Shown here one piece after another: positions 4,951-60,395 of a stretch of DNA of 64,000 nt (position 1 is the first letter of the stretch; every line of letters starts with the position of its first letter). Below the pieces are notes generated by a model that worked only from the letters and a program-made list of their open reading frames with translations, did not search any database and was not told the origin of the DNA. The DNA comes from an uncultured Eubacteriales bacterium (GTDB taxonomy: Bacteria; Bacillota; Clostridia; Oscillospirales; QAKW01), in NCBI GenBank assembly GCA_902492505.1, contig CABULU010000001.1, positions 71,601 through 135,600 of the forward strand. Reading direction: 5' to 3'. A program made the position numbers and the translations under genes.

Positions 4951-4971
4951 ACTAAATCACCTCTTATAAAA

Positions 4972-5613: not shown

Positions 5614-5628
5614 ATATAAAGCTAAATG

Positions 5629-11617: not shown

Positions 11618-11627
11618 GTATGCAACT

Positions 11628-17861: not shown

Positions 17862-18126
17862 TGTAAAAATTAAGAAAGCCGCACGAAAAATATCCGCGCG
17901 GCTTTTGTGTGGAAAGTTATATTAGAAAAAATATTGCTGTATTGCTCTGCCTGCAATTTTGTCCGAAGGTCTCCCCACGGGTTTGTATGCAGACTTACGA
18001 CGGCAATGCCTGCCGCCGGGAGGGCTCCCGCCGAAAAACTCGATAATCCCTCCGCCTCGTTAACCAAGCTTTAAATTTTGGTCTGGCGCTTTTGAAATTC
18101 CCTTGAAAATATCTGCCCACCTTTCT
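17862..18126 (-). ncRNA. unclassified structured 5' leader (candidate riboswitch/attenuator) of the Na/Pi-PhoU transporter
   Basis: Bounded by a consensus promoter (18133-18161) and an 11-bp-stem terminator (17876-17904 plus U-tract). The GC-rich core has four local helices at 18062-18083, 18019-18053, 18001-18015 and 17949-17994. There is no SD-led ORF, and no good promoter between the terminator and the transporter ATG. Confidence 0.5.
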
Positions 18127-35549: not shown

Positions 35550-35637
35550 AGAAGTCAAATTTTTCGCGTATCTTAGAATTTGACTGATGGTAATTTTGAT
35601 TAATTTAAATGGCTATGTTAGGAGAAAGGATACCGAA

Positions 35638-36894
35638 ATGAAAAAAATGAATAGATTGAAAAAACTGATATCAATAATATGTATTATTTCGCTCGCTTTA
35701 TCATTATTTACGGCATATGCAGCTGATATTTCATCTGATAGTCTGACAGAGATACGGATTAGCAGCGGCAAAGTGTTTAGATTTACACCGCAGGAAATGT
35801 GTAATATTGTGAGTGTTTCAGCAGAAGAGGCTAAAGAAATTGCCGAGTTATTTGTTTGCGACGCTGCGAAGACGCCGGAAATTGATTGGGATGAGAATAC
35901 AAAGGTTGTCAATGTAATTCCTATGTATGATCAAACAGATACAGATACGGTTACTGCATATACGGTAAAACTAAATAAAGGGTATGTTGTAGTATCCGCA
36001 TTTTTGGATGCAAAGTCACTAATACCCGAATGGTCCGATAAAGCTGAGCCTTTGTATACAGAGCTTGATTTAAGCGACAATGACAAGATTGTTTATTTGG
36101 GTAATTATGAGTATTATCTCGATGAGGGTGATGGTAAAGTAACGGGACTGTCCGGAGAACAGATCGAAAAAAACAACCTTGTTAATTATGTGGATGACAA
36201 TCGTAATATAAGTAATATACCGGAATCGGCTTATTTGGAGTATGATTATAATAATGTATCTGTATGCTCTGAAATTGTTGATCCCATAGGTCACGCAAAT
36301 GCAAATTACGGCGGACCGTTTAGCTATACACGCCGCATAGATTACTGGACAAATTATATGGATTATTATACAACGGAATTCGGTAATAGAAATCAATATA
36401 CAAATCATTGCGGACCGACTGCCATTACGAATTTGATTGCAGCGTTTCGCAATCGTTATCCTGCAGGTGCTGCGGGTATTCCAAATGATAATGATACACT
36501 GTTTCTTACCATAGCAGATAAGGGCATATTAAACAATTTTTTCAGTAATACTGACGGTACGCCTAATAACAGAGCATATTATTATATAGATTATATTTTT
36601 GATATGTACGGAATAACTCCATATCAGATGTATGAGATTCCAAGTAACGCCGATGATATTGATGAATATGAATTCCCCATGGGTTATAACGCTATATTTT
36701 ATATGTCTTTAAAAAAAGAAAGTACATACGGAGCGCATGCTGTTATCGCATACGGGCTCTCAGAAATGGAAAATCAGGCAACAGGGGCGCAAAAAGCATA
36801 TTTTCACATAGCTGACGGCTGGAGTGAGTCCCCGCGTTATATAGAACTAAATTCTGATATTGCCTGTGCTGTGGGTATACAATTTTATTATTGA
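35638..36894 (+). CDS. secreted papain-fold cysteine peptidase, C10 (streptopain)-like with propeptide
   Basis: Signal peptide. Propeptide-like segment (VSAEEAKEIAELFV...YTVKLNKGYVVVSAF). Candidate catalytic Cys258 in YTNHCGPTAITNLIAAF and His367 in YGAHAVIAYG. Low GC. Confidence 0.6.
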   Translation: MKKMNRLKKLISIICIISLALSLFTAYAADISSDSLTEIRISSGKVFRFTPQEMCNIVSVSAEEAKEIAELFVCDAAKTPEIDWDENTKVVNVIPMYDQTDTDTVTAYTVKLNKGYVVVSAFLDAKSLIPEWSDKAEPLYTELDLSDNDKIVYLGNYEYYLDEGDGKVTGLSGEQIEKNNLVNYVDDNRNISNIPESAYLEYDYNNVSVCSEIVDPIGHANANYGGPFSYTRRIDYWTNYMDYYTTEFGNRNQYTNHCGPTAITNLIAAFRNRYPAGAAGIPNDNDTLFLTIADKGILNNFFSNTDGTPNNRAYYYIDYIFDMYGITPYQMYEIPSNADDIDEYEFPMGYNAIFYMSLKKESTYGAHAVIAYGLSEMENQATGAQKAYFHIADGWSESPRYIELNSDIACAVGIQFYY

Positions 36895-42600: not shown

Positions 42601-42774
42601 TGCCAAATTATATGTACCTTAACGTAATGTAATACTGGAAAATTTAGGATATTATACAAGAACGGTTTTGCTGATTTGCATAAATTTTACAAAAAATAAA
42701 TATATTTGATAATATTGTGGCATTTATGGGAAAATTATGATATTATGAAGAAAATATATAAAGGAGGAAGCTAT

Positions 42775-43473
42775 ATGAAAAAAATAATATCTTTAATACT
42801 GATGTGTGTTATGTTACTCTGCGTAGCATCCTGCAAACGCCGTCCGCCGGAAGATGTAAGAGCAGATATTCCGGCGCAGAGCAGCGGCGACGCGGCGGAC
42901 GAGCCGGAAGACAAAACAGATAAAGAAAAGACTGAAGATAAGCCTGCAGAAAATGCAGATGATAATAAGAATGATATAAATACAGAAAATAAAAAAGATA
43001 CAGAAAATAAAAAAGATACAGAAACAACAGAGCAAAAAGATAAGGATAATGTTGAGGACGCAAACGATAATTCAGAAAATACAGAGAAAGAAGAAGCAGA
43101 AACGGATGCGCCCGCCGACGATTCAAAGCCGACGACCGGTCCCGAGTCTTGGGTGACTATAACTGAGGAAAAGGCGCCGCCGTGTAATGTAACAATTGAC
43201 GACGATTTTGATGAAGGAAAGGTGTTGGTATATCTTACACGTGCGCAGAGTGCAGCTCGGCAAGAGTATACTGCGGCGGATTTTCCGGGTGTGGATATAG
43301 AAGAAATTAGAGTCGGTTCGTATTATCCCGAAATCAATAACCGCATTTCAGTAAGATTAATATTAACCCAAAAGGATAAAGGCTCTGTAATTGAGGCTAT
43401 AAGGATATTGGAGCAAAGTCCCATAGTATACTATGCCAAACCCATTATAACTAGGGAGGTAATTGATGTATGA
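42775..43473 (+). CDS. lipoprotein with acidic repeat region and subtilase-propeptide-like C-terminal domain
   Basis: Lipobox VASC. K/D/E/T/N-rich spacer. The C-terminal end ...KGSVIEAIRILEQSPIVYYAKPI resembles I9/fervidolysin-type prodomain endings. SD aaaggagga. Confidence 0.6.
   Translation: MKKIISLILMCVMLLCVASCKRRPPEDVRADIPAQSSGDAADEPEDKTDKEKTEDKPAENADDNKNDINTENKKDTENKKDTETTEQKDKDNVEDANDNSENTEKEEAETDAPADDSKPTTGPESWVTITEEKAPPCNVTIDDDFDEGKVLVYLTRAQSAARQEYTAADFPGVDIEEIRVGSYYPEINNRISVRLILTQKDKGSVIEAIRILEQSPIVYYAKPIITREVIDV
42981..43024 (+). repeat. 18-bp tandem repeat (tacagaaaataaaaaaga, about 2.4 copies)
   Basis: Encodes NKKDTE NKKDTE within the lipoprotein spacer. Confidence 0.8.
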
Positions 43474-43558: not shown

Positions 43559-43583
43559 ATCCCCGGGCAGTTTGCCCGGGGAT
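43559..43583. terminator. bidirectional intrinsic terminator
   Basis: atccccgggca-gtt-tgcccggggat with A/T-rich flanks, 7 bp beyond the stop of the giant gene. Confidence 0.85.
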
Positions 43584-43589: not shown

Positions 43590-46500
43590 TTATTTTACAA
43601 AACTCTGATGAAATCTTGTAATTATAGTTGCAACCTGTGCGCGCGTAGCATAATCCCGCGGTGCAAAGTTGTGTTCGTCCATGCCGTCTATTATTCCGGC
43701 TCTCTGGCAGATTTCAACCGCCTCTTTGGCGTAGTTTTGAATTCTGCTTTCGTCATTGAAGGTTTTCTTTTCAACCCGTTCATCAAGCACAATACCCGCA
43801 AATTTTGCATACCTTACAATCATCGTGCAAATCTGCTGTCTCTGTACATTATCATTGGGTGAAAATTTATCGCTGTCCGTGCCGTCAACAATTCCGTTTT
43901 CAAAAGCCCATTTAACAGCCGGTGTATACCACTTACCGGACGGTACATCGCTAAATGCCGTTTCAACTTCGCGGTTTTCCGTGTCTACGCCGCTCATGTT
44001 CGCAAGAATTTGGACAAACATGGCTCTTGTGAGCGTCATTGCCGGTGCAAATACCGTTTCATCAGTTCCGTTCATCAGCTCATATGTTGCTACATAATCA
44101 ATGTAGCTCTTGTACCATCTGCCGCTTTCTACGTCGCTGAACTGCTTTGAACTGTCTGTAAGCTCCTTGTCGGGTTCGGGAGTAGGTTCGGGCTCGGGTT
44201 CGGGTTCGGGCTCAGGTTCGGGTTCAGGTGTTGGGTCGAGCTTTGTGCCCTGCGCGGTTCTGACTTCTTCCTCACCGCAGTATTCACATTTCCTTGTCTC
44301 TGTGCCGTCCGCTTCCACAGTGGCGTCGTTGTTATAAACAAATTCGCCCCATTTATGTGCGTCCGGGTTTACGGGAATAGCCTCGACTTTTGTATGGGAA
44401 CTGTCGTTTTTGCATGTAAAGAGCTTTTCGCCCTGTGCCGAGCATGTGGGTTCTTTTGTAATTACTCCGTTGTCCCATGCGTGTTCATCGGCGTCAATAG
44501 GAATTGTCTCAGTCCTTGTATGAGAACTGTCATTACGGCAGGTAAACAACAGCTCACCCTCTTGCGAACAGGTCGGCGTTTTTGTTACCGTTCCGTTATC
44601 CCAATTGTGACCGAGCGCAGAATCCTCCTTAATTCTTGTGTCCGTATACGTACAGCCGTATGTGGTACAGTGTGCAGTTTCGGTTCCGTTATTCTCGCAG
44701 TCCGCGTCATTGTTGGAAACATATTCACCGAAACTGTGTTTTTTCAGTGCATTTTCCGCATTTGTCAGCATATTTACGGCGGCTGATACATCGGCGGCGC
44801 TTTCAAACAATTCTGCCGCCGCTTCAGCGTTTGATATCGCTGTCAGCAGTGCGTCAAATGTGGGAGTGCAGTATAAGTTACTGTCGTTGCTTATCTGTTT
44901 TGTGCGTTTGAGTACGGTGTTGAATTCACTCTGGTCTATAAGTCCGTTTACTGCACTTTCAAGCTCTGTGCATGCCTGCATTATTTGTCTTGCATTCGGG
45001 GAAATTATTGCTTTGACCTCGTCGATTTTGTCCGTCAGCACTTTGTATGATGCTGCTGTGTACCTGTGGTCGCTGTTTTTTATCTTCTGTGCATCCGCTA
45101 TTGCACTGAGCATCCTTTCGGTGTCAGGCGTCAGATTATCCATTGCTTCAACCAACTCCTGCATCGCCTCGGTAATGTTTTCCGCGCGCAGAGTAACTGC
45201 TGATTTCAGGCTGTAGGTACTTAAATTGTTTTCGCCGTAAAACGTTTTTGCGGTTTCGTACTTTTCAAGGAAATTCTCCGCCGAAACCTCGGTGTAATAT
45301 TCAAACTCCTCGCTGTTTTTTATAATTTCGGCATTTTTTAGGATTTGACCGTAATTCTCCGCTTCCAGAGTGATTTTATCTATTGCATCCTGCAGCGCGT
45401 TGTATGCGGCATTGATTTCCGTCAGTGTGCTTTGCGTTCTTTCTGCGGTTTTTACGGCTGAATTAATTGCCGCGTTCAGTTCCGTTATCTGATGCTGAGA
45501 GCAGCTTGTTGTATCGATTTCACTCGCACTTTCAGTAAGACTGTCAAGCTCGAGCAGCTTTTGAGCGATATCCGCCGCAAGGTTTATTTTCTGAGCTGCG
45601 TTGTCTGCCTGTGTCTTGTCTGCTTTATCGCTGTGAATTATGTATTCACCGTCTTTTGCAGCGAGCCTGATACGTTCTAAAGCGTACTCGCGGTAACCGC
45701 TTGCGCTTTCAAAACCTGCCGCGCGCTCAAGCGCAGTATAAAGCGCACTCATATCGGCGGAGTTTATGTCAATTTCAAGAACCCACTGTTCTGAAGAGGT
45801 GTTGTTTGAAATGCTGACGGTGTATACGGCGTCGTTGACCGCCGGGATTTCGGTTATATCCGAGACTCCGCTGACAGTGATCGAGTTACCGCCGCTTTGA
45901 ATAATATAGTCATTGAGCGAGAAGGTGCTCTTTCCGGCGCCGAGCGTCAGCTTCAGTGTTTTGTCGGAGCTGTTTACCTTGATTTTATCTGAAAACTTAT
46001 AGCTTGTCAGTCCGTCGGAACGTATTGTAAGCGCATAATTTTGATATTGCCAGTTGTTGACGGTGTTGCTGCCGCCCAGTATTTTCCTACCGGCGCCTGT
46101 AATAAAGCTGTCTGAATATACATTGTAGTAGTTCCCGGACAAATCAAGCACGCTGTTGTTTGACGGGTTATTAATTACGCCTGCGACGCCTACAAATCTG
46201 TTGCCCGAAATATTCATTTTCAGCATTTCGTTTGGCTGGGCCGTGTCGTTGAAGGCAATAAATGACGCAGTTTTTTCGGTGCTGCTCAAAAACAGATTGT
46301 TTTGTATGCTTATATCGCTGTAAGCGTAGGGAGACACGGTAAATCCCGCGGCTTTGGTCTGGAAGTTGTAAAAGCAGTTGCCTGTAATGTTTAGCTGCGC
46401 TGTTTGGCTCTGACCGTTGTTTGCATGGTTTCTGCCTTCGAAATACAGATAATTTCCGGCTGATGTATCAATACCGTTTCTCAGATTACAGTTTTTAACC

Positions 46501-49500
46501 GACAGTCTGCCGTCTCTTTGTTTTGAACTCATTTTCCACCAGCCGAGCAGGCTTACCTGTGATTTTTCAAGGTCACAGTATAGACCGTCTATCGTAAAAT
46601 CACTCGGTAGATATTCGTTAAGCAGTCTGTTTCTGCCTTCGTAAATTTCGGTGCTGCACATTACCTTTTCAACACGAACGTTTTTCATAACACCTATATC
46701 AGTGTTGTTTCCACCCTGCTCGTTGTTTAAGTTGGAAAATGTAAGTGTGTAAACGGTAGAATAATATCCGTAAGGGCTGGCAGCGAGAGTTTCCTCATGC
46801 TCGATAACGATGTTTTCGAGCGTTATTTTTGTCTGTTTGCTGCTGGCGCCGCGCAGAGTATCGTAAAATCGTCCGCGCAGAGTAATGCCTTTTATCTCGA
46901 TATTTGTGCCGGATGCGTCGGGAGATATGGATATCGAATCTATTTCGCTCTGACCGTATGAGCCCCAGTCGTCGCTTAGCGTCCAGTCGGAGGAGATGTC
47001 ATCCGATACAGGAGTATTGGGATTTACATCATAATTTATGCCGTATACGGAGGTATCCGCGGGGATTATAAGCTCGCCGTCAATCTTTGTATCGGGAATT
47101 ATAATCTGAATATGTCCGTTTGAGCGCACTGCGTTTATTTCATCGATATCCGAGAATGCGTTTTCACCGACGGTGAATCTGTAATACCTGCCTTTCCAGC
47201 TGCGTATTATAATGTCCCTTTGGCTGTAAAGGGCGATATCCGGGCTGAGAAGATACGCGGTGCTTTGAATTTGTCCGAGCGGGTCTGAAAAGCTTTCTTT
47301 AAAGTAGCCGATTTCATTTGCCTCCAGCGTGACGCTGTAAGTACGCTGTGCACCGTTTTTGGAAAGCTTCAGAGTGTATTCGGTATTTCCCGCCATTACA
47401 TCTTTATAGCTGATGCTTGTTACGGGTACGCTGCTGTCAAAGGGATACAGTGCCTTGTCAACGCCGCTTCCCTTTGTAATAAATTCGAGTACACCCGTTA
47501 TATTTTCCGTCAGCATTACATTCAGCTTTTGTTCTTCAGGGAGAATCTGAAGCATTGTTTTTCCGCCGCCAAACAGAGCATTTGTGACGTCAAAGTCGGT
47601 GCTGAGAGTATTTAAAGAAAAGTCACAGTAATACGGCAGTGTGACCGCACCTATCGGGTCTGTATTTCCGTCGGGACCTGAAACGTATTCGGGGGCTTTT
47701 CCGGTTTTATCAGATACTGAAGTGAAAGTGTCTGACAGGTAATTGCCTGAAAAATCAAAGCTCAGCTTTGCAAGATTTTCGTCCGTAACTTGGTTCATAT
47801 TGGGCAGATAGGAGGTTATGCCTATAAAGCGGTTGCGGTGGACGTTCATTGTCATCGGATTGGTAAAAAACGCGCTGTTTCCTTCGATAGCAGTGTCCAC
47901 CTCGTATCCGCCCTGCTGACTGAACAGATTATCCTCTATTGTCACGTTAATATCGGGAAGCTGTGCCGATACTGAAATAATGCCCCACTGCGCACTTGCA
48001 CAGTTTAAGAACGCATTGTTGTAAATTGAAAGTTTACCGCTTTGATAATCACCCGATGTTAGCGGTGTTGTGCGTATACGCACGGCACGTGTAAGAGCGC
48101 CTCCGGTAAAGCAGCTGTTTTTAACTGTATAGTCCATGTCGTGGCGCATGTTCATGTTTGCGTCAACGTCGAATATGCTTACGCTCATGCTGGAATTTTC
48201 TATATATGCACCGTCAAACACAAGTGTATCAAGATATTTTCTTATGAGCGCAGAGCCGTTGAAGCCGGTCATGCGCAGATTTTTAACAGTCAGTGAATTG
48301 TAATTGAAGGTGGTGTCCTGCGCCGTGTAAAGATGTCCCGTCTGGTTTACGGATTTTATATTCTGCAGGTACATGTTGTCTGAACGCTTGCCGGTCACGT
48401 TCAGTGATATTGAGTTATCGCTGTCTGTTCTTGAGCCCACGTCAACATCGTCTACTCCGAGTTTTCCGCTGCCCGTAAGCTTTATACCGTCTATCAGAAT
48501 AAAGAACTCCATGCGCTCGTCAGCGGCATTTTCCGCGTCCTGAACATTTTTTTCAAGCGATAGGTCATCGTTGCCCGAAACTCTTGTCGAGCGATAAATT
48601 CTGTCGGTGAATACCGTTTCGTGCTCGCTGTCCCATGCCGTATTTTCGGCTATGCTGCCTCCCGGCAGAAGCTCTGAGACGTCAGCGGACGGGTCGTTTG
48701 GATTTATGCCGGCATTTGTTCCGAGTATCATTGCGCGGTAGTAAACCTTGATGGCGCCGTAGCTGCCCTCGGTAAATATAAATACCGGTGTATCATGCAG
48801 AATGTCGGGGTTGGTGCCAAGCCAGTGCGCATATGCCGAATCAAAGTTCGCAAAATGGCGGTTGCTGTCAAACGGCTGGGTATACTGCTCTCCCCGGAAG
48901 GTAAAGCTTATATTTCCGGATGATGTATTTGCCCAATCTGCGTCTATAATATATGCGGTGTTGGGGTAGCTGTCATAATCGGGAGTAAGACCGGCGGACG
49001 CAGGACGAACAACGCGCAGTGTGTAGTCGATACTCTGCGTGCCGTCCGTAACACGTATGATGTAATTCTTTTCGGTGCCGCTTTCAATCCCATCTGCCCT
49101 TGTTACGGATTGACCGTTGTACATGAGCTGTGAGGACGTACCATCAGCTGTTTTTACGAATATATCCGCGCCCGATGAAGTTTCCGGCAGGGTCAGTGTG
49201 TAGCCGCCCGTATATTCGTTAAAGGCAATGACTCCTCTGTCCGCAATTATATCGTGTATGGAAAGTAACGCCGGCACATTACGGTGGATTTTGAGAGTAA
49301 ACGTGGTATAGACGTAAGGATTGTCGGGAACGCTGATTGTAACTTTTACGGTTGTAATAAGATTGTTAACCGAAATATCCGACATATCAGCAGTTTCGCC
49401 GTCGAGCAGGTATACACCGGATATAATCAGGTCGGACAGATTATCTATATATCCGTCGGTAAAGTCGATTTTTTGTCTGTCGCTTTCAACAAACAGCTCC

Positions 49501-52500
49501 AGTACCGAGTTTATGCTGTCAAATATGAGCCCGTCTTTTTCGGAGAACAGCACCTCTACCGGATTTTTGATTTTTGTCAGCGCATAGTCTTCGTAATATG
49601 CGCTGCAAAGAGCAAAGCCCGTGGGGCAAATGCCGTCGTCAGCTATAATAAAATCTTCACTGTACGGAGCAAGGTAATTTTCGGAAACGTCAATAAAAGT
49701 ATTTGTACTGTCGTAGTTTGCAGCGGCAAAATAGCTTGAAAATCCTACTATACGATTGTTTTTAAAAGAGAAGCCGCTGCCGGTGTATTCGGTGTTTTTG
49801 TAATTAATTTCAAAAAGTACCGGCGACTCTGTTTTGTGTATAAAGGTATTGTCCTCGATAGTAAGACTTGTATATGCCTGAGGAGACAGAGAGATAAGCG
49901 CGCCGATCTGATTACCGATGCTTTCAAACACACTGTTTTTTACGGTGTAGGCTATGGCGTTAGCACCGACTGTTACGCCGTCGCGTGAATCTGTTAAAAA
50001 CGCGCCGCTTGCAGAGCTTACGTTAAACCGGCTGTCGGAAATTAAAATTTCGCAGTCACCAGAATACAGGCTGCTGTTCCAGTGTGCGTCAAAAAGCCGC
50101 GTCAGAGCGCCGTTACTGTAGCTGTTGGTAATTGAAAGCTTTGAGGGAAGCGCGCCACCGAACAGTATTTTATTTTGGCTTTCGTCCGACGGGATATTTT
50201 TAATGTAAACTCCGTCAAGAATATATTCATTGTGCAGGCTTTGTACGGACGGGCATCCGACATTAAACTGTCTGTATCCGTTTTGTGCATCACCTTGTGC
50301 GTTTATCAGCGAGTTTTTAAAAGTGATGCTGCCGTTTTGAGTTCTTGTAAGATCAGAAACTGCGCCGCAAAGCTCGACACCGGAAATTGTGACGTTTGCA
50401 CAGGACAGAGTAATTCCGGAAACCTTTGAGGTTTTCCCGCTGCTCCATGCAAGTCCGGCTCCCCACTCGTCCGTACCGCTGCCGGCAGCGGCGGCGCTTT
50501 TATAATTTTCACCGTAAATCTGACAAGGAGCGGTGATGTTAAGCTCACCGTAGCTGCCGTAAGGCAGAATTATCTGAGGTATACCGCTGCCGGCGGCAGC
50601 AAAGATTTCTTCAAGCGTTGCAAATGCGTTCTGTCCGACGGTAAACGAATACGTTCTACCGTCAAAGCTCTGTCTGAAAACTGCGCCGTTTGACATGTCC
50701 GCTGTCTCAGGAGATAAAAGATACGCCGTATTTTGTATAGTACCCTCTGGGTCAGACCAACCGCTTGCAAAGTCATCAACAGCATTTTCACCGTAAAGCT
50801 TTACAGTAATCACTTTTGAGGCGGAGCCCTTAACGGCTTTTGCATAGACCGTTGTGACAGCGTTTTGAGCCGGTGCTGAAATTGATGTTATGCGGGAAGC
50901 ACAGCTGCTGTCAGAAAAAAATTCTGCGGTTACTGCACTGTCTCGAAAATACAGCGCTGGGTTTTGGATATTTGTGCCACAGGTGTATGACGCCGTGATA
51001 AGCGAATTATCGTTGTCAATGCTTACATAGTCCGCATCCTCATAAAAGCTGACGCCGGATACGTCCAGCATGCCGTCATAGACGGTCATGGCAAAGTCTT
51101 CATAATATACAAGGTTGTCAATGTCAATAGGGTCGGAATAGGGCGTTGTACTAAAGTACTGGCTTGTAGTTCCCAATACGTCGGCATGACTGTTATATGA
51201 CGGCGCAAAATAGTTATAGTTAAAGTCCGCTGTTATGTATGTTACATTGTCGGGCATGTTGGGGAAAAGGCTTGTGTAGCCAATAACCCTGTTGCGGTTG
51301 ACATACATGGCGTATGCGCCCTGCTGATAGCTTGTGTTGCCGTTCAGAAAAGTGTTTTTCGCTGTGGTATTATAGCTTTGGTCGGCAATAAAGATATTGT
51401 TTTGTATGTTTATCTCGTAGCTTGAGTCCTTGTGAGATTTTGTGCTGTAAAATGTAAGCGCACCATAGCTTCCGCTGTTATGCTCGTAAAACAGGTTGCC
51501 GTTTAGCGTGACCTTGCTTTTATGCTCTGAATCTTTATATCTGAAATTAAGATTGTAGCCAGCCGAGCATTTGTACATATACGAATTCTGCATAAGAAAA
51601 GAAAATTCATACGGAGCGATAAGCTGGCTTTGTGAAATGGAGCCGGAGCTGTTGGCAAAATATACCCCGTCCAGTCGAACGTGCGAGGCGTTTGCACCGA
51701 AAAAGCTTTTTACCTTGGTGCCGTCACTGCGTATGTTTTTAAAATCGTAGCAGTTTACGTTGTTTGCCGACTGAGAGTCATCTATATAAAAAGAGGCGTT
51801 TGTAGTGACAATGTCGTTGTTTTGCACAGTCACTGACATTGTACGTTTTTTTGCACCTGTTGTGTCGGCAAGCGTTAGAAAATTAGACGCAGCCGAAAAT
51901 TTGACTCCGTCGATTATAAGCGAAAATTCGGTTTCGTTTGAGGCGGCCTGCTCGTATTTTTGATTTGTCAGAGAGCTGTTTACCTGTGTCGAACGGGAAA
52001 AACCGTTTGAAATCACGGTTTCGCTGCCACGTAGGGTATTTTTATTCCAGCCCGTTTTGGGATTAGCCGTTGACAGATCGATGTCGGCATTTGGCGAAAT
52101 GCCTGCGTTTGCGCCTAAAATCACCGCGTTATAGCGTACGGTGAGCCTTGTTTCGGTATAGGTTCCCGGAGCAAGTATAAAAACAGGAACCTCCTTTGCC
52201 ATCTGGCTGTTTATGCTGCCGTCAGACTCCGTGTAAAGTGATTCAAAATAGGAGTATGCCGCTGAAAAGCTTGAAAAATGGCGCTGAGGATTGTAGGTCT
52301 CATTATACGTATTACCGCGGAATTCAAAGGAAAGACTTGTGTTCGAGGTTAAGTTAGTCCATTGTGGATTAACAATATACGCTTCTTGCAGAAGAGACGA
52401 GTAGTCAAGAACAGCACCTATGCTTTCCTGATCTGTCTGTGCACTTTTAACGCCGGAACTTTCGGCGAATGCGAAAAGTGAAAGACCCTGTACGGGACAC

Positions 52501-52562
52501 AGCGCCGTAAAAATCGTGAGTGCCAAAGTGAAAGCTAAAGCTCTTACTCTCTTTTTAAACAT
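43590..52562 (-). CDS. giant (about 2990 aa) SLH-anchored cell-surface protein with four parallel beta-helix-type modules
   Basis: Signal peptide MFKKRVRALAFTLALTIFTALCPVQGLSLFAFA. Repeated beta-helix-like motifs (IQNNIFI, IEDNTFI, NRVIGYTS, DFNYNYFAP...). Then a helical FIVAR-like region, Cys-rich H.WDNG..TK.PTC repeats, a (PE)n linker and three C-terminal SLH domains. Start moved to the ATG at 52562 (SD aaggag), because the track's start is the -35 box. Confidence 0.85.
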   Translation of the reverse strand: MFKKRVRALAFTLALTIFTALCPVQGLSLFAFAESSGVKSAQTDQESIGAVLDYSSLLQEAYIVNPQWTNLTSNTSLSFEFRGNTYNETYNPQRHFSSFSAAYSYFESLYTESDGSINSQMAKEVPVFILAPGTYTETRLTVRYNAVILGANAGISPNADIDLSTANPKTGWNKNTLRGSETVISNGFSRSTQVNSSLTNQKYEQAASNETEFSLIIDGVKFSAASNFLTLADTTGAKKRTMSVTVQNNDIVTTNASFYIDDSQSANNVNCYDFKNIRSDGTKVKSFFGANASHVRLDGVYFANSSGSISQSQLIAPYEFSFLMQNSYMYKCSAGYNLNFRYKDSEHKSKVTLNGNLFYEHNSGSYGALTFYSTKSHKDSSYEINIQNNIFIADQSYNTTAKNTFLNGNTSYQQGAYAMYVNRNRVIGYTSLFPNMPDNVTYITADFNYNYFAPSYNSHADVLGTTSQYFSTTPYSDPIDIDNLVYYEDFAMTVYDGMLDVSGVSFYEDADYVSIDNDNSLITASYTCGTNIQNPALYFRDSAVTAEFFSDSSCASRITSISAPAQNAVTTVYAKAVKGSASKVITVKLYGENAVDDFASGWSDPEGTIQNTAYLLSPETADMSNGAVFRQSFDGRTYSFTVGQNAFATLEEIFAAAGSGIPQIILPYGSYGELNITAPCQIYGENYKSAAAAGSGTDEWGAGLAWSSGKTSKVSGITLSCANVTISGVELCGAVSDLTRTQNGSITFKNSLINAQGDAQNGYRQFNVGCPSVQSLHNEYILDGVYIKNIPSDESQNKILFGGALPSKLSITNSYSNGALTRLFDAHWNSSLYSGDCEILISDSRFNVSSASGAFLTDSRDGVTVGANAIAYTVKNSVFESIGNQIGALISLSPQAYTSLTIEDNTFIHKTESPVLFEINYKNTEYTGSGFSFKNNRIVGFSSYFAAANYDSTNTFIDVSENYLAPYSEDFIIADDGICPTGFALCSAYYEDYALTKIKNPVEVLFSEKDGLIFDSINSVLELFVESDRQKIDFTDGYIDNLSDLIISGVYLLDGETADMSDISVNNLITTVKVTISVPDNPYVYTTFTLKIHRNVPALLSIHDIIADRGVIAFNEYTGGYTLTLPETSSGADIFVKTADGTSSQLMYNGQSVTRADGIESGTEKNYIIRVTDGTQSIDYTLRVVRPASAGLTPDYDSYPNTAYIIDADWANTSSGNISFTFRGEQYTQPFDSNRHFANFDSAYAHWLGTNPDILHDTPVFIFTEGSYGAIKVYYRAMILGTNAGINPNDPSADVSELLPGGSIAENTAWDSEHETVFTDRIYRSTRVSGNDDLSLEKNVQDAENAADERMEFFILIDGIKLTGSGKLGVDDVDVGSRTDSDNSISLNVTGKRSDNMYLQNIKSVNQTGHLYTAQDTTFNYNSLTVKNLRMTGFNGSALIRKYLDTLVFDGAYIENSSMSVSIFDVDANMNMRHDMDYTVKNSCFTGGALTRAVRIRTTPLTSGDYQSGKLSIYNNAFLNCASAQWGIISVSAQLPDINVTIEDNLFSQQGGYEVDTAIEGNSAFFTNPMTMNVHRNRFIGITSYLPNMNQVTDENLAKLSFDFSGNYLSDTFTSVSDKTGKAPEYVSGPDGNTDPIGAVTLPYYCDFSLNTLSTDFDVTNALFGGGKTMLQILPEEQKLNVMLTENITGVLEFITKGSGVDKALYPFDSSVPVTSISYKDVMAGNTEYTLKLSKNGAQRTYSVTLEANEIGYFKESFSDPLGQIQSTAYLLSPDIALYSQRDIIIRSWKGRYYRFTVGENAFSDIDEINAVRSNGHIQIIIPDTKIDGELIIPADTSVYGINYDVNPNTPVSDDISSDWTLSDDWGSYGQSEIDSISISPDASGTNIEIKGITLRGRFYDTLRGASSKQTKITLENIVIEHEETLAASPYGYYSTVYTLTFSNLNNEQGGNNTDIGVMKNVRVEKVMCSTEIYEGRNRLLNEYLPSDFTIDGLYCDLEKSQVSLLGWWKMSSKQRDGRLSVKNCNLRNGIDTSAGNYLYFEGRNHANNGQSQTAQLNITGNCFYNFQTKAAGFTVSPYAYSDISIQNNLFLSSTEKTASFIAFNDTAQPNEMLKMNISGNRFVGVAGVINNPSNNSVLDLSGNYYNVYSDSFITGAGRKILGGSNTVNNWQYQNYALTIRSDGLTSYKFSDKIKVNSSDKTLKLTLGAGKSTFSLNDYIIQSGGNSITVSGVSDITEIPAVNDAVYTVSISNNTSSEQWVLEIDINSADMSALYTALERAAGFESASGYREYALERIRLAAKDGEYIIHSDKADKTQADNAAQKINLAADIAQKLLELDSLTESASEIDTTSCSQHQITELNAAINSAVKTAERTQSTLTEINAAYNALQDAIDKITLEAENYGQILKNAEIIKNSEEFEYYTEVSAENFLEKYETAKTFYGENNLSTYSLKSAVTLRAENITEAMQELVEAMDNLTPDTERMLSAIADAQKIKNSDHRYTAASYKVLTDKIDEVKAIISPNARQIMQACTELESAVNGLIDQSEFNTVLKRTKQISNDSNLYCTPTFDALLTAISNAEAAAELFESAADVSAAVNMLTNAENALKKHSFGEYVSNNDADCENNGTETAHCTTYGCTYTDTRIKEDSALGHNWDNGTVTKTPTCSQEGELLFTCRNDSSHTRTETIPIDADEHAWDNGVITKEPTCSAQGEKLFTCKNDSSHTKVEAIPVNPDAHKWGEFVYNNDATVEADGTETRKCEYCGEEEVRTAQGTKLDPTPEPEPEPEPEPEPEPTPEPDKELTDSSKQFSDVESGRWYKSYIDYVATYELMNGTDETVFAPAMTLTRAMFVQILANMSGVDTENREVETAFSDVPSGKWYTPAVKWAFENGIVDGTDSDKFSPNDNVQRQQICTMIVRYAKFAGIVLDERVEKKTFNDESRIQNYAKEAVEICQRAGIIDGMDEHNFAPRDYATRAQVATIITRFHQSFVK
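44172..44237 (-). repeat. hexanucleotide tandem repeat encoding the (Pro-Glu)n linker
   Basis: ggttcg/ggctcg units, about 10 copies, encoding TPEPEPEPEPEPEPEPTPEP. Confidence 0.85.
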
Positions 52563-52577
52563 AATCTGCCGCTCCTT

Positions 52578-52607
52578 AGGCTTATAATTATACATAATTA
52601 TAAGCCT
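52578..52607. promoter_or_regulatory. perfect 30-bp palindrome (14-bp arms) overlapping the -10 of the giant-gene promoter; candidate operator
   Basis: aggcttataattat-ac-ataattataagcct. The right arm contains the -10 and the left arm abuts the SD. Confidence 0.55.
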
Positions 52608-52625
52608 AAAATGAACGTTTGTCAA
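52597..52625 (-). promoter_or_regulatory. consensus sigma-A promoter of the giant surface-protein gene
   Basis: Minus strand: TTGACA (52625-52620), 17-nt spacer, TATAAT (52602-52597). Confidence 0.7.
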
Positions 52626-55199: not shown

Positions 55200-56804
55200 A
55201 TGAAAAAGATTATTAAGTTTATATCTTTGATGTGCATTACGGCAATGCTGATGAGCACAGTTGTTTTTGCTCAGAGTGACACATCTGCAAACGATACGCA
55301 GGCTTCGGGCGAAACACAGACTCCGGGTGACATTGAGGTGTCCGAAGATACGGAAAACCCGGACGAGCCTGAAGTCCCGGAAAAAACCGTTGTTTCGGCT
55401 TCGGCATACTTCGGTGATATTTATAAATTTATAAATAAAGGCGAAAAGCCGGATTTGTCTGCGGGATATATCGACTTTAAATTCAGCGATGATACGCAGG
55501 AGCGCGTGTTGCTGAGCGACAGCAGGCTTGCCCCCTTCCCCGATACTTCAGAAATCGGATACCTTACCTATACTTTTGGGATATACGCAAGTACATATTC
55601 GATTAATTTTATTGTTGTCGATCCTTCGATTAATGTATCTGCGTTTAAGGACCTCAAAAAGGAGTTTTGGGGTTATGCAAGTATCCGCAATGTGCTGTTT
55701 GGGGGCTTTTTCACTGGTATGTCCGACAGCGAATTCGCACCAAAGGAAAGTATGACCCGCGCGCAGTTCTGTCAAATGATTTATAATATTTACAAGGATG
55801 ATCCGTCTGTCATGTCGGGGGATATCGATATTGCTTTTACCGACGTTGAGGATTTCAGATGGTATTACGATGCTGTTATGGCATGCGCCAAGGCCGGCAT
55901 TGTGGACGGCGTAGGCGACGGAATGTTCAATCCTCAGGCGCCGATCAAGCGACAGGAGGCGGCTGTCATTATGATGCGTATTCTTATGGGAGCCGATGCG
56001 CTTGATAAGGTGGACGTTGAAGCGGCACTTTCTGCCGCGCGTGCTGCGGGCATTGAAGCAAAGGATTTTGATACCACCTCGAATTATGCGAAAAAAGCAG
56101 TAGCCGCTGCGCTGGGCGTTATATTTTTCGGTGATTCCGAGGGCAACCTCACGCCCAAAAACGATATAAACCGTGCCGAGTGCGCGACGATGATGTCAAA
56201 CTATTTCTTTGAGGGATATAACGCACCACCCGTTAAGTACCTTGTTTACCTCAGTCCGTCAAATCAGATGACAAATCCGTATACGGGAGTTGATACTACC
56301 GAGGGCGCACAAATGCAGCTTGTTGCCGCTGCGGCTGAAAAGTATCTTAAGGAGATGGGCTACGAGGTATATATTGCAGATGTTAATACATCTATAAAAG
56401 AGGACGCTCAGCCTAACCGCGCGTCAGAAGCGGAACAGATGGGGGCGGATGCGTATGTAGCTATTCATTCTAATGCTATTAACAATACCAATAACGGAGA
56501 GAGTGCCGGTGGTGCCGGCGGCGCCACGGGATTTTATAACGGAAACAACAATGGTTCAAAGGAGCTTGCGCAGTTTGTATATGACAGGCTGGCGGCATTC
56601 ACGCCGACTGAGGATAACGGGATAAGCGATGATATGCTAACCTCAAAGCCGTTTGCCGAGGTACGTCTTCCTATTATGGCAAATCTGCTTTTAGAAGTTG
56701 AGTTTCATGATTATAAGCCGTATGCGGAGTGGATAACTCAGAATATCGACGGCATCGGCAAATGTATAGCACAGGGAATTGACGATTATTTTAAATCTCT
56801 GTGA
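55200..56804 (+). CDS. SLH-anchored N-acetylmuramoyl-L-alanine amidase
   Basis: Signal peptide, an unknown N-terminal domain, three SLH repeats, and a C-terminal Amidase_3 domain (YLSPSNQ...YVAIHSNA...LLEVEFHD). Confidence 0.85.
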   Translation: MKKIIKFISLMCITAMLMSTVVFAQSDTSANDTQASGETQTPGDIEVSEDTENPDEPEVPEKTVVSASAYFGDIYKFINKGEKPDLSAGYIDFKFSDDTQERVLLSDSRLAPFPDTSEIGYLTYTFGIYASTYSINFIVVDPSINVSAFKDLKKEFWGYASIRNVLFGGFFTGMSDSEFAPKESMTRAQFCQMIYNIYKDDPSVMSGDIDIAFTDVEDFRWYYDAVMACAKAGIVDGVGDGMFNPQAPIKRQEAAVIMMRILMGADALDKVDVEAALSAARAAGIEAKDFDTTSNYAKKAVAAALGVIFFGDSEGNLTPKNDINRAECATMMSNYFFEGYNAPPVKYLVYLSPSNQMTNPYTGVDTTEGAQMQLVAAAAEKYLKEMGYEVYIADVNTSIKEDAQPNRASEAEQMGADAYVAIHSNAINNTNNGESAGGAGGATGFYNGNNNGSKELAQFVYDRLAAFTPTEDNGISDDMLTSKPFAEVRLPIMANLLLEVEFHDYKPYAEWITQNIDGIGKCIAQGIDDYFKSL

Positions 56805-56820: not shown

Positions 56821-56852
56821 ACTGCCGCGAGCTGTTGCCCGCGGCAGTTTTT
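56821..56852. terminator. bidirectional intrinsic terminator
   Basis: actgccgcg-agctgttgcc-cgcggcagt followed by T5. Confidence 0.8.
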
Positions 56853-57777
56853 ATTTGTTTTGTCTTATCACTGATACGGTTTTTGGCATCATAAATATTA
56901 GCAGACCTGAAAAAAGCCAAAGAGCCGATGTCTCTGTCAATTTGAGGACAAAAATCATGAGCAGCAAGACAGCGCCCGTAATATACATCGTTTTAGTCAC
57001 AGCTCCCGCTCGTTTAAGAAGACAGCGGCGCCGCAGCCAGACAAAGCAGACAGTCAATATCAAAACAGACATTATGTATATTAATATAACAGATGCCGTT
57101 TCATATTGAGTGCCGTGTATTTCTGAAAACGGATTCATATAATAAAATGCGGTCTGAAAAGCGCTGTAAAACGGTTGTACCTTTTCGGAAATTCCGTAAA
57201 ACCGATAGCTTACGGCGCTGTATAAAAATGAGCCTGTTAAATAAATCAAGTAAATCAGCTCGGCAGTGACTACCGCACCTCCCGCAAGCCCGCGCGCTAT
57301 AAGAATGCCGACAAGAGAAAATGCTGTGACGGCAAGTGCAACGGCAGCAGTGCCGCATATTATATTTAATCGGCGCAGGACAGAAAACGGTTCGTTGAAA
57401 AAAACAAACAGGCGCAGAAACAGCGGAATTAAAGTACAAATAATCTCGCCTGTAAGCGCGGCGGCAAGCCGCACGGCGCAGTGCGAGACGGTACTGCGTG
57501 CGCCTGACAGGTAAAAGTCTGCTCTGCGCTGCTCCCATAAAAAGGAGAACAGTCTGTATATAAAGAAAAACGGCACGAAGAACGGAAAGTATGCCATATT
57601 GCCGGCAAGTTCGGATGCAGGCATGTAAGGTGCATACTGAGGATTGATTCCGGGAGACCATATGCCGAAAATAAGTGCCGCCGCCGTAAATAGCAGAATA
57701 AGCGGCAATATCTCACAAAGCGCCTCTGTATAGAGAAAGAATTTAGAGTATTTTGTATTCGAACGCCGGATTGCCAT
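56851..57777 (-). CDS. polytopic membrane protein (ABC-2-type permease-like), last gene of the YtrA-type operon
   Basis: 308 aa with about 8 TM helices. It overlaps the upstream gene by 35 nt. Confidence 0.6.
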   Translation of the reverse strand: MAIRRSNTKYSKFFLYTEALCEILPLILLFTAAALIFGIWSPGINPQYAPYMPASELAGNMAYFPFFVPFFFIYRLFSFLWEQRRADFYLSGARSTVSHCAVRLAAALTGEIICTLIPLFLRLFVFFNEPFSVLRRLNIICGTAAVALAVTAFSLVGILIARGLAGGAVVTAELIYLIYLTGSFLYSAVSYRFYGISEKVQPFYSAFQTAFYYMNPFSEIHGTQYETASVILIYIMSVLILTVCFVWLRRRCLLKRAGAVTKTMYITGAVLLLMIFVLKLTETSALWLFSGLLIFMMPKTVSVIRQNK

Positions 57778-59497
57778 ATTTGTTCAGCTCCTCTCTTACT
57801 AAATTATCAAGGAGACTTTTTGTCTCAGGAAAAGCGGCGCTGTTAATGCGGCATTTAAGCACCTTTCCGTTTTTAAGACGCAGCTCAAGAATTTGTGATG
57901 TGTCTTCGGTATTGCCGATTTCGTAGAGCGCCGCCAGCGTCTGTTGCTCGGTAAGCTGTGAAAACTCGCGGTAAAAGCTGTTTAAAACGGCACCACTGTT
58001 TTCTATAAATCCGATTTTTGTAACGGAACGTGCCGTGCTTTCGTCAAGCCAGTTTTTAGACTCAATCTGTGCGTCGTAAACTATCTCGCAGACGTTTTCC
58101 TGTGAAAAAAGCTGTGCATTGTTTCTATTTGCTGATTTTATAAGCTTTTCAATCAGCTCTTCGTTTGCAAAATCATAACATGGCTCGGATTTACCCTGTG
58201 AGCACATATTGTACTGTATATAATGTGTTGTGTTTTTGCCCATGGACGGGTCTCGCCGCAGCTGCGTAATCAGCTCTGAATCGTTTACTTTGACTTTTCC
58301 TGCAATGTCTTCGTGAGCGCTGATATAGTTCAAATCAAAGTAATCGTCCATTGAACAAATATTATTTATTTCGATGTATTCGGGAGGCTCAGGCACTGTC
58401 GGATAAAATTCGGTGTTGATTTTCACTGAAATGCTTGTCACGGCAGCGGCAATCAGTACTCCGGCAAATACCGGAAGTGAACGTATCAGTCTTTTGAACG
58501 AGTATGTGCATATAAATTCGGATATGAGGAAAATAAGCAGAGCCAGCATAAAGAGTGCAAAGACTTCCCTGTATCTTACCGATGAATAGTAGTTGCGTTT
58601 ATCTATATATGCGACAGCTGTTTTTATGCAAATAGGAGCTGTCAATACCGCAGCGGCGATATGACCTGTGACAGAACGCCGCACACCTGCCCCCGGCTGC
58701 GTTTTTGCGCGTCTGTATGCCAAAAATGCAAGAATTGAAAAAATCGGGATTGAAACCGCGCCCCAGATAAGTGCGCTGTTTGGGAAAACGGCACGCCAGT
58801 ACACTATTTCTCCTGTGAAAAACTGCAATCCGCTAAGGGCATCAAGCCCCAGTATTCCGCTGACTATTTTATAGAAAAACGGCGGGGAGAATTCGGGCGG
58901 AAAAATGGTTGGCGGTAAGTGATTATAGCTTGCGTACAGACCTCCTATGACTGAGTACAGCAAAGGCACTGCGAATGTAAGCGCGCAATACAGGACGGCG
59001 GATGCCGACATTCTGCCGCAGAGAGAAATTGCAACGACAGCAACGGCACACAGGCAGGCAGACATCAGCAGAAGCGCAGACGGTACGCGCAGTCCTGCGC
59101 CGAAAAGAATAAAGTTGTGTTTCCAAAGCAGATAATTAACCGTAAAGTAAACGACTGCCGCCGATAAAAGCTGCACTGTCAGAACCGCTGAAAATTTTGC
59201 GGTAAAAATTCCGGAGCGTGATTTGGGTATACTCCCGTAAAAATCCGACTGTGCTTTATTGTGGAGGTATCCGAACTGCTTATAGGTCAAGATAAACGGC
59301 AGTACAAAGCAATATATAAAAATCGGATAAATAATCATAGCCCCTATTTCAAAATCAAGACCTGTTTCACCCGTCGGGCTGTAAAATTTTATTATTCCGA
59401 CGCTCAGTATAATCATACCCGCCGTGCCCGCAATGCCGGCGGATAAAAGCTCTCTGACAGAAAGTAAAAAAAATCGGAGCGGATTATTTTGTTTCAT
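57743..59497 (-). CDS. polytopic membrane protein with C-terminal extracytoplasmic domain (ABC-2 permease-like)
   Basis: Start set at the ATG at 59497 (SD gaggtg), overlapping the ATPase stop by 14 nt. About 10 TM helices are followed by a ~200-aa soluble C-terminus. Confidence 0.6.
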   Translation of the reverse strand: MKQNNPLRFFLLSVRELLSAGIAGTAGMIILSVGIIKFYSPTGETGLDFEIGAMIIYPIFIYCFVLPFILTYKQFGYLHNKAQSDFYGSIPKSRSGIFTAKFSAVLTVQLLSAAVVYFTVNYLLWKHNFILFGAGLRVPSALLLMSACLCAVAVVAISLCGRMSASAVLYCALTFAVPLLYSVIGGLYASYNHLPPTIFPPEFSPPFFYKIVSGILGLDALSGLQFFTGEIVYWRAVFPNSALIWGAVSIPIFSILAFLAYRRAKTQPGAGVRRSVTGHIAAAVLTAPICIKTAVAYIDKRNYYSSVRYREVFALFMLALLIFLISEFICTYSFKRLIRSLPVFAGVLIAAAVTSISVKINTEFYPTVPEPPEYIEINNICSMDDYFDLNYISAHEDIAGKVKVNDSELITQLRRDPSMGKNTTHYIQYNMCSQGKSEPCYDFANEELIEKLIKSANRNNAQLFSQENVCEIVYDAQIESKNWLDESTARSVTKIGFIENSGAVLNSFYREFSQLTEQQTLAALYEIGNTEDTSQILELRLKNGKVLKCRINSAAFPETKSLLDNLVREELNKYGNPAFEYKIL

Positions 59498-60395
59498 CGG
59501 TTCGCACCTCATCAAAGCTGTATCCGAGCGCAGCCGTTTCATGAATAAATATCTCCTCCAGCGACAGCGGCATAAGCTCCAAAAACAGCGGATTTTTTAT
59601 GCGCACGGCTTCGGTTATTCTCTCCTTGTCCCCGCGGGCAATAAGCTCGTATACACGCCCGTACTTTTTGAGGCTGAGAATTTCAATCCCGTCAAAAATT
59701 TCTCTGCTGAAATCGCCGTCAAAAGCCGTCTGTATCTTTACCAGGGAGGTGCGGATATTCTGTATATCTCCGTCAAATGCGATTTTGCCGCCGTGCAGCA
59801 GCGCCAGTCTGTCGCAGGTGTCCTCCAGCTCACGCAGCGAATGCGATGTCATAATTACCGACATTTTGCGCAGCGCCGCGTCTTCAAAAAGTATGCGCCG
59901 GACCGCCGTGCGTACCGCGGGGTCAAGTCCGTCAAAGGTTTCGTCCATAATAAGGTATTTCGGGTACGCCGACATTGCCAATATTATAGCCGCCTGCCGT
60001 TTCAAGCCTTTTGAAAATGAATCGATTTTTTTTGAGCAGTCTATGTTAAGCGCCAGAGCCAGTTCAAAAAGCCGCGCTTTTGAGAAAGTGGGATATACTG
60101 CTTTGTACAGCCGCGCCATTCTGCTCAAATCGGCGTTTTTTATAAAATACGGTTCATCCGGCACAAAGGCAAGCTTTCCTTTTGCGGCCGGATTTTTGGA
60201 AATATCCTCGCCGTCAATTGTTATTATGCCGCTGTCAGCACGCAAAACTCCGCATATAAGCCGCATGAGCGTGCTTTTCCCCACACCGTTTACTCCGACA
60301 AGTCCGAATATTGAACCGTCGGGTATTTCAAGTGAAAGAGCGTTTAAAACTGCTGATTTGTTGTATTTTTTCGTTACCTTATCTGCCTGTATCAT
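59484..60395 (-). CDS. ABC transporter ATP-binding protein
   Basis: Walker A GVNGVGKST, signature FSKGLKRQ, Walker B LIMDETFDGLD. Confidence 0.9.
   Translation of the reverse strand: MIQADKVTKKYNKSAVLNALSLEIPDGSIFGLVGVNGVGKSTLMRLICGVLRADSGIITIDGEDISKNPAAKGKLAFVPDEPYFIKNADLSRMARLYKAVYPTFSKARLFELALALNIDCSKKIDSFSKGLKRQAAIILAMSAYPKYLIMDETFDGLDPAVRTAVRRILFEDAALRKMSVIMTSHSLRELEDTCDRLALLHGGKIAFDGDIQNIRTSLVKIQTAFDGDFSREIFDGIEILSLKKYGRVYELIARGDKERITEAVRIKNPLFLELMPLSLEEIFIHETAALGYSFDEVRTDETK

Follow-up and report, generated by a model that had tools for sequence, protein, structure and literature searches.

A 64,000-nt stretch of contig CABULU010000001.1 (positions 71,601 to 135,600 of the forward strand), from an uncultured Eubacteriales bacterium and called the window below, carries on its minus strand a gene for a giant protein of 2990 aa. 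From its N terminus the protein comprises a signal peptide, four modules of ~400-460 aa in A-B-A-B order (A1, B1, A2 and B2) with linkers, a helical spacer, Cys/His repeats, a (PE)n tract and three S-layer homology (SLH) repeats. The four modules are homologous and belong to a domain family described here, and the protein is tentatively read as a non-catalytic, multivalent glycan-binding or adhesive surface fibre.

Organization of the gene

The open reading frame (ORF) runs uninterrupted from 43590 to 52625 (-); its first ATG lies at 52562, giving a single gene at 43590-52562 whose stop codon is at 43590-43592 (-). A preliminary description of this DNA had already taken it for one 9-kb gene, and the promoter, ribosome-binding site and terminator around the intact ORF bear this out. 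The features of the gene and of the encoded protein are as follows, in the direction of transcription; hidden Markov model (HMM) E-values are for the family profile described below.

52597-52625 (-): sigma-70-type promoter read from the sequence; -35 TTGACA at 52625-52620, 17-nt spacer, -10 TATAAT at 52602-52597
52572-52577 (-): ribosome-binding site AAGGAG, 9 nt 5′ of the ATG
52464-52562 (-): start codon and predicted Sec-type signal peptide, aa 1-33, MFKKRVRALAFTLALTIFTALCPVQGLSLFAFA then E
51063-52406 (-): module A1, aa 53-500, A-type beta-helix, putative distal tip; HMM domain E=1.6e-125
50751-51062 (-): linker domain 1, aa 501-604, probably a beta-sandwich; kept in the orthologues and 14 family proteins, no Pfam match
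49554-50750 (-): module B1, aa 605-1003, B-type beta-helix; HMM E=3e-116
48981-49553 (-): linker domains 2, aa 1004-1194, about two beta-sandwich units; kept in the orthologues
47589-48980 (-): module A2, aa 1195-1658, A-type beta-helix, duplicate of A1; HMM E=1.4e-135
47283-47588 (-): linker domain 3, aa 1659-1760; kept in P0007, P0008 and L004-L006
46005-47282 (-): module B2, aa 1761-2186, B-type beta-helix, duplicate of B1; HMM E=5.4e-135
45783-46004 (-): small beta-rich domain after B2, aa 2187-2260, with strands in the low-confidence tail model; kept in P0007, P0008 and P0137
44751-45782 (-): helical spacer, aa 2261-2604, long helices in the AlphaFold2 model; fastest-evolving region
44253-44750 (-): four ~42-aa Cys/His-rich beta repeats, aa ~2605-2770, starting at aa 2609, 2652, 2694 and ~2736; predicted local distance difference test (pLDDT) 82-95
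44148-44252 (-): (PE)n / TPEP flexible linker, aa 2771-2805, read from the translation; contains DNA repeat D1, 44170-44247
43593-44147 (-): three SLH repeats, cell-wall anchor, aa 2806-2990; Pfam PF00395, three stretches, E=1.3e-25
43559-43583 (both strands): bidirectional intrinsic terminator hairpin directly 3′ of the stop codon; 11-bp stem with 8 GC pairs, T-runs on both strands

The promoter matches the consensus at 12/12 positions and lies downstream of a hairpin that closes the gene for a Na+/H+ exchanger. Together with the terminator and this upstream hairpin it marks the giant gene as a self-contained, monocistronic transcription unit with strong signals, the expression of which is probably strong and constitutive. 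The putative signal peptide is indicated by a basic n-region, a hydrophobic core and an AFA-E cleavage-like site. Linker domains 2 gave a match to a Cadherin-like beta-sandwich that stays below the Pfam threshold (E=2.1e-4, 22.1 bits vs a cut-off of 24.2).

An old duplication of an A-B cassette

In pairwise BLAST, A1 (aa 58-611) and A2 (aa 1201-1768) share 28% identity over 598 aa (E=5e-44), and B1 and B2 share 26% identity over 499 aa (E=3e-27). Similarity between A and B modules is weak by the same method (E from 2.7e-6 to 0.015); alignment of an A-only with a B-only profile by hhalign gave 99.95% probability and E=7.8e-38 over 396 columns, from which all four modules are homologous. Motifs common to an alignment of nine modules are a P.I...G.Y...ILG cap, NAGI.PN, W..N..R..ET, IDG, NY.A and YY.D..T, along with an Asn ladder that recurs once per coil. 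No long DNA repeat was found in the giant gene except the (PE)n tract (repeat family D1, listed above), so the A-B duplication is visible at the protein level only and must be old. An ancient (A-B)x2 duplication had been proposed in the preliminary description, and these alignments agree with it. The peptide strings and turn motifs quoted there are all present in the translation, and the order of its modules stands; its spans do not, because they include the beta-rich linker domains of ~100-190 aa that lie between the beta-helix cores.

Fold of the modules

A1 was modelled with AlphaFold2 from a 48-sequence alignment. The model (pLDDT 85.5, predicted template modelling score 0.90) shows about nine regular rungs of paired short strands, and in Foldseek searches of the PDB and of a viral library (BFVD) every described match among the 50 listed per library was a right-handed beta-helix or pectate-lyase-superfamily protein. 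The uniformity of these matches confirms the right-handed beta-helix fold class of the A1 model. In the PDB the best match had E=0.057 and TM-scores did not exceed 0.37; the top match was a Klebsiella phage tail fibre, and those listed include polysaccharide lyases (PL) of families 6 and 9, glycoside hydrolases (GH) of families 28, 55, 87 and 91, a carbohydrate esterase (CE) of family 8, and the binding region of a Lactobacillus reuteri serine-rich repeat protein (SRRP). The viral library returned pectate-lyase-superfamily proteins and tailspikes (best E=4.7e-3), with TM ≤0.41 over both libraries, and the model has no near structural relative among the matches listed. The ladder positions N248, N276, (D298-G), N326/S327, N356, N389, N424 and N450 are 65-99% conserved across the family. 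B-type modules are taken to be beta-helices because they are homologous to A over their full length. The beta-helix fold first suggested from turn motifs thus agrees with the A1 model and its matches.

At the sequence level the modules match no described family. Scanned against Pfam, NCBIfam and PHROG, even at E≤10, the protein as a whole and its individual modules gave SLH and noise only and no beta-helix family. A PDB sequence search with the protein, and then with a nine-module profile, returned only the SLH domains of Sap and noise, and no chain containing a beta-helix.

The module family and its architecture

Word-index searches gave very few relatives, and the family went unseen until an exhaustive profile search was made over 1.84 billion representative proteins. 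It comprises 377 representative clusters at E≤1e-3, of which 100 reach E≤1e-30. In databases no member bears a name other than 'S-layer homology domain-containing protein', a cluster look-up gave no name for any of ten members, and the literature yielded no paper on the module family, only analogues. Full modules were counted in 156 sequences: 71 contain one, 38 two, 14 three, 12 four, and six contain five to eight; a family protein of 5410 aa has nine module stretches. Copy numbers therefore range from one to nine, and tandem arrays are the norm of the family.

Modules were assigned to a type by two HMMs, one for A and one for B. Of 121 proteins, 78 have an A-type module at the N terminus; the modules that follow are of B type in 85 of 97. 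Layouts include A-B (26), A-B-B (8), A-B-B-B (3) and all-B arrays; A-B-A-B is confined to the window protein and three related clusters, and it is the doubling of an ancestral A-B cassette that is specific to this lineage. Four tandem modules, which the preliminary description called an unusual design, are therefore not unusual as such, being found in 12 of the 156 sequences with others reaching eight or nine; what is unusual is the internal second A. The first module begins within 100 aa of the N terminus in 147 of the 156 sequences, and SLH repeats lie at the extreme C terminus in 61 of the 62 that carry them. With the anchor C-terminal and the A modules N-terminal, an A module would form the distal tip.

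A sub-group of ~1240 aa (P0101, P0113, P0114, P0119, P0121, P0122, P0125, P0135 and P0143) is built of a signal peptide (mostly starting MAKKS), one module, a Cadherin-like domain and SLH repeats. The gene for P0119 (L009 8001-11729) lies directly downstream of gyrB-gyrA. These single-module proteins look like classical S-layer proteins and are candidates for that role.

Partner domains were determined by a Pfam scan of 77 family members. SLH was found in 33, CE2/GDSL esterase in about 10, CotH in 4, Metallophos in 4, endonuclease/exonuclease/phosphatase (EEP) in 2, Laminin_G_3 in 2 and Amidase_2 in 1, with Ig-like or Cadherin-like domains in several; no GH or PL domain was present in any of the 77. 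Since the module is fused in other proteins to unrelated catalytic domains (CE2/GDSL, Metallophos, EEP, CotH, Amidase_2), the pattern is the one to be expected of a targeting or binding module. Likewise, one to nine tandem copies are more typical of binding or stalk modules than of catalytic domains, which favours binding over catalysis.

One CE2 fusion (P0160/P0139; L008 8001-10289) joins a shortened beta-helix module to CE2_N and a GDSL esterase. Genes of the BNR_2 (sialidase-like) and DHDPS (NanA-like) families are found nearby, a context that could hint at sialate or acetylated-glycan processing.

Orthologues and selection

The identical 2990-aa protein is present on five metagenome contigs, one of them labelled human gut metagenome, and has the same neighbours in the three places shown. 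Three orthologous loci, all collinear, were found by a single-protein scan: an orthologue of 87% identity in a metagenome-assembled genome (MAG) of an uncultured Clostridia bacterium (isolate RGIG9041, water-deer rectum), and orthologues of 63% and 61% identity in two more uncultured Clostridia MAGs. Clusters P0007 and P0008 have about 42-50% module identity to the window protein and keep the ABAB order. The five contigs, at least one of them labelled human gut, and the water-deer rectum orthologue uphold the gut origin that had been guessed for the host. Of its further assignment to Clostridium, an uncultured Clostridia bacterium is right; nothing shows membership of the genus.

Two fragments from other assemblies, P0001 (1326 aa) and P0006 (316 aa), are 86-93% identical to the window protein and end out of frame, reflecting frameshifts in the assemblies or else decay of the giant gene to a pseudogene in certain strains. 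The MAG with the 87% orthologue (GCA_017937065.1) also encodes a two-module (A-B) SLH paralogue, P0004 (L007 8001-13112; L010 6001-11113). Its context, in which genes for an AraC regulator and a GH78 (Bac_rhamnosid6H) protein come next, is kept in a second assembly. In L010 the P0004-type gene and its neighbours are split by frameshifts, which indicates low assembly quality. The 446-aa P0024 had been considered as a free-standing secreted A module, which would favour an enzyme; it proved to be part of a P0004-type gene broken by frameshift in an assembly of low quality.

Against the 87% orthologue, the ratio of non-synonymous to synonymous substitution rates (dN/dS) was 0.05-0.20 over all regions: 0.07 for A1, 0.09 for A2, 0.12 for both B1 and B2, 0.07 for SLH and 0.18 for the helical spacer. 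By this measure every module is under purifying selection, and the A modules are as constrained as the SLH anchor.

These values bear on the reading of the protein as a structural surface coat or S-layer-associated protein, a rigid spacer or protective brush (shielding the cell from phage or host factors, for example) with no specific ligand. Constraint on the A modules at the level of the anchor (0.07-0.09), together with their conserved polar loop (see below), argues for a specific interaction instead; the maintenance of distinct A (tip) and B (stalk) types over long divergence and the enzyme fusions of relatives also fit a mere coat poorly. We regard a coat function as improbable, even though it would suit the perfect promoter, strong ribosome-binding site and terminator of a monocistronic gene in housekeeping surroundings, the resemblance of the ~1240-aa SLH sub-group to classical S-layer proteins (one of them encoded directly after gyrB-gyrA), and a conservation that is mostly structural.

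Conserved residues and the question of catalysis

Conservation across the whole family falls on Gly, Pro, aromatic residues and the Asn of the ladder; none of the acidic or basic residues is invariant. Among 86 non-redundant A-type modules a polar set stands out: D218 (98%), N158 (88%), W172 (84%), E181 (76%), R178 (71%) and R278 (67%). A1 holds the full set, A2 holds N, E, D and R278, and B-type modules are without it; B1 lacks all four partly conserved charged positions, yet its dN/dS is 0.12. Conserved residues of the B-type modules include R740/R1904 and D1992. D218 was considered as a catalytic Asp and downgraded: by strand register D218-G and D298-G share the turn position taken by the ladder Asn of later coils, so both residues are probably structural in the model. 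N158, W172, N175, R178 and E181 fall within a long, confidently modelled loop of A1, and the modelled composition of this loop is typical of a sugar-binding site and not diagnostic of catalysis. As judged from sequence, the modules carry no convincing catalytic signature. None had been recognised in the preliminary description either, a view that accords with the lack of any GH, PL or CE family match in Pfam, NCBIfam and PDB sequences and of any charged residue invariant across the family.

The modules, or at least those of A type, might nonetheless be catalytic domains of an undescribed family of beta-helix polysaccharide lyases or hydrolases. The protein would then be a multi-catalytic depolymerase displayed on the S-layer and acting on a complex glycan from the diet or the host, its B modules being accessory or supplying a second specificity. 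Carbohydrate-active enzymes and phage depolymerases dominate the fold class, and the A-type-specific polar cluster, full in A1 and partial (N, E, D, R) in A2, could be read in this sense. So could the CE2/GDSL acetyl-esterase partner of about 10 of the 77 members, such esterases being common partners of backbone-cleaving enzymes, and the neighbours that the two-module paralogue has in two assemblies, an AraC regulator and a GH78 gene of the rhamnosidase type; SLH-anchored multimodular glycanases are moreover well known in Gram-positives (PMC5132251). This proposal, the main rival of the binding fibre, still appears unlikely: Pfam, NCBIfam and PDB sequence searches gave no GH, PL or CE match even at E≤10, the family as a whole has no invariant charged residue, D218 and D298 fall on turns of the ladder, and B modules without the polar set are equally constrained. 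Arrays of up to nine copies and promiscuous fusion to non-glycanase enzymes also speak against it, as do the surroundings of the window gene, where no polysaccharide-utilisation genes were found. Somewhat more doubtful again is its most specific form, in which the module would be the catalytic domain of a new, unclassified lyase or hydrolase family of at least 377 clusters and the ABAB protein a four-site depolymerase on the S-layer of an uncultured human-gut Clostridia lineage, with A and B cleaving different linkages of one complex glycan. A binding function is favoured by the absence of an invariant catalytic set and by the constraint on B modules that have no polar cluster.

The C-terminal tail

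The SLH anchoring put forward in the preliminary description is supported by the three repeats detected with Pfam and by a PDB sequence match of the region (aa 2805-2988) to the SLH structure of Bacillus anthracis Sap (6bt4/3pyw, E=6.5e-13, about 1e-12). The rest of the tail model has an overall pLDDT of 57, too poor for a global fold search, and is confident over aa ~2536-2776, which span the last helical bundle and the Cys/His repeats. In the helical spacer pLDDT was below 50 except for this last bundle (above 85). Only two local matches of the tail model were meaningful; both concern the bundle, which resembles helical domains of ZmpB INT (7jrm) and EndoE (7puk) with probability 1.0 and 25% identity. 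The spacer had been called FIVAR-like: its helical character holds, while FIVAR itself (PF07554) stays below the Pfam threshold (E=0.015, 16.3 bits vs a cut-off of 29.2), leaving the local ZmpB/EndoE match of the last bundle as the sole support for the name.

The Cys-rich repeats noticed earlier are present, but as four ~42-aa units instead of two. They alternate between two subtypes, H.[FW]GE[YF]V.NNDA...GTET..C..C and H.WDNG.[VI]TK.PTC...GE.LFTC.NDSSHT. No Pfam family covers them, and a word-index homologue search with them gave nothing useful; BLAST found homologues in 28 of 155 fetched proteins, with up to 10 units in one protein by a crude regular expression. The spacing of His and Cys suggests that these repeats may bind metal.

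Genomic surroundings

The neighbours of the giant gene have housekeeping functions (Na+/H+ exchanger, asparaginase, oxaloacetate-decarboxylase subunits, RecG and ProRS); neither a polysaccharide-utilisation cluster nor phage genes were found around it. A consensus promoter and constitutive-looking signals in such a setting, with no polysaccharide-utilisation cluster, support a binding or adhesive function.

A domesticated or prophage-borne gene of the tailspike or depolymerase kind is suggested by the fold searches, in which the top PDB match was a phage tail fibre and the best viral-library matches were pectate-lyase-superfamily proteins and tailspikes (E=4.7e-3 and weaker). We find this barely credible: the structural matches are weak (TM ≤0.41), a signal peptide and an SLH anchor are the design of a cellular surface protein, and the chromosomal context, free of phage genes, is conserved across several metagenomes. 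A prophage origin is largely ruled out by the housekeeping context and the absence of any PHROG match.

A second SLH protein, a cell-wall amidase with SLH and Amidase_3 domains, is encoded 2.6 kb from the giant gene at 55200-56804 (+), which suggests that SLH anchoring is in use by other wall proteins of the same organism. A 255-aa membrane protein with a weak PFF1_TM match is encoded at 42706-43473 (+), convergent with the giant gene, and the two genes have the bidirectional terminator at 43559-43583 in common. Elsewhere in the window a glmS ribozyme (17939-18101 (-), 87.9 bits) and a lysine riboswitch (11622-11790 (+), 54.6 bits) are ordinary features, lying upstream of housekeeping genes, among them one of the Na+/H+ antiporter family. 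Positions 4001-6000 have a GC content of 0.33 vs about 0.46-0.50 elsewhere and may be an island, an AT-rich intergenic stretch or a foreign segment. Four ORFs encoding 308-670 aa had no Pfam match at the thresholds used:

463-2475 (-)
35587-36894 (+)
56851-57777 (-)
57743-59542 (-)

Proposed role

In the proposed model the secreted protein would be held non-covalently on the cell wall by its three C-terminal SLH repeats. Outward from this anchor would follow the flexible (PE)n linker, the four Cys/His-rich units, the helical spacer and then the rigid B2, A2, B1 and A1, with beta-sandwich linkers separating the beta-helix modules and an A-type module at the distal tip. The beta-helix modules would act as glycan-recognition units, and the fibre could attach the bacterium to polysaccharides of dietary, host or microbial origin. 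Precedents for such a role are CBM54, the SRRP binding region and the Giant1-4 proteins, compared below. A modules, with their conserved, ordered loop of Asn, Trp, Arg and Glu, may provide the main binding site, and B modules may be stalk or secondary binding units. Duplication of the A-B cassette would have doubled the reach and valency of the fibre or added a second specificity.

Several points weigh against a binding fibre. No known carbohydrate-binding module (CBM) or adhesin family matches the modules, their structural neighbours are mostly enzymes (PL6, PL9, GH28, GH55, GH87, GH91, CE8 and phage depolymerases), and the polar set conserved in A-type modules could be an active site. Many family proteins also have no other candidate catalytic domain, as would be expected of a surface enzyme.

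Uncultured gut Clostridia are a large blind spot, and their biggest surface proteins are in contact with diet, mucus, phage and neighbouring microbes. Giant SLH-anchored beta-helix surface proteins are of an already expected kind, and the finding is a well-formed lead more than a surprise. New here are a sizeable domain family modelled by no database, its two subtypes with A at the tip and B behind, and a confident model of the A-type beta-helix. Should the modules bind glycans, they would form a novel class of beta-helix CBM or adhesin; should they cleave glycans, they would make a new CAZy family. A1, B1, A2 and B2, with a short list of candidate residues for mutation, are concrete targets for recombinant work.

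Comparison with known systems

The window protein and its relatives were compared with four kinds of known proteins. CBM54 of Paenibacillus ChiW and Clostridium thermocellum Lic16A is a lyase-like beta-helix in SLH-anchored enzymes that shows no detectable degradation and binds several insoluble polysaccharides (PMC5132251), and the window protein likewise combines a beta-helix with SLH anchoring. CBM54 is however a single-copy domain of about 250 aa and 12 coils, placed between N-terminal SLH repeats and GH catalytic domains (PMC5132251), whereas the window modules are 400-460 aa long, stand in tandem N-terminal to a C-terminal SLH anchor and are accompanied by no GH domain. The CBM54 self-cleavage motif G-G-G-X-[NQDH]-S-[VI]-X (PMC5132251) is absent from the window protein, and in its strict form from all 156 sequences checked. 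Searches of PDB sequences with the protein and with the profile gave no match to CBM54 of ChiW or Lic16A, and no ChiW entry was among the 50 Foldseek matches listed.

SRRPs of L. reuteri (5nxk, 5ny0) have a beta-solenoid that binds polygalacturonic acid, rhamnogalacturonan I, chondroitin sulfate A and epithelial cells (PMC5866549). They too are surface proteins of a gut Gram-positive with a beta-solenoid at the distal N-terminal end, and their chains had the highest target-normalised TM-scores among the PDB matches listed (0.45-0.47, probability 0.75-0.77), although E-values of 0.29-0.42 are not significant. SRRPs differ in their glycosylated serine-rich repeats, accessory Sec (aSec) export and single binding region from the SLH-anchored, four-module window protein, the translation of which contains no serine-rich repeats and no LPXTG.

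Giant1-4 of Apilactobacillus kunkeei are extracellular surface proteins of 3,000-8,000 aa, predicted to be long and extended, for which an N-terminal beta-solenoid is proposed to bind glycans or cells (PMC12863079). They are likened to the window protein by description, with no sequence relationship seen; in them a single N-terminal solenoid is followed by other repeats, and lineage and anchor are different. Beta-helix carbohydrate-active enzymes and phage depolymerases (PL6, PL9, GH28, GH55, GH87, GH91, CE8 and Klebsiella tail fibres) have in common with the modules the fold class, the N-terminal cap motif and the Asn ladder. They are set apart by the weak Foldseek values (best E 0.057 in PDB and 0.0047 in BFVD), the lack of any HMM match in Pfam and NCBIfam, and the absence from the modules of recognisable family-specific catalytic residues. 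Since the CBM54 motif and serine-rich repeats are absent and no sequence match or significant structural match was obtained, the window protein appears to belong to none of CBM54, SRRP and Giant1-4, which are best regarded as its analogues.

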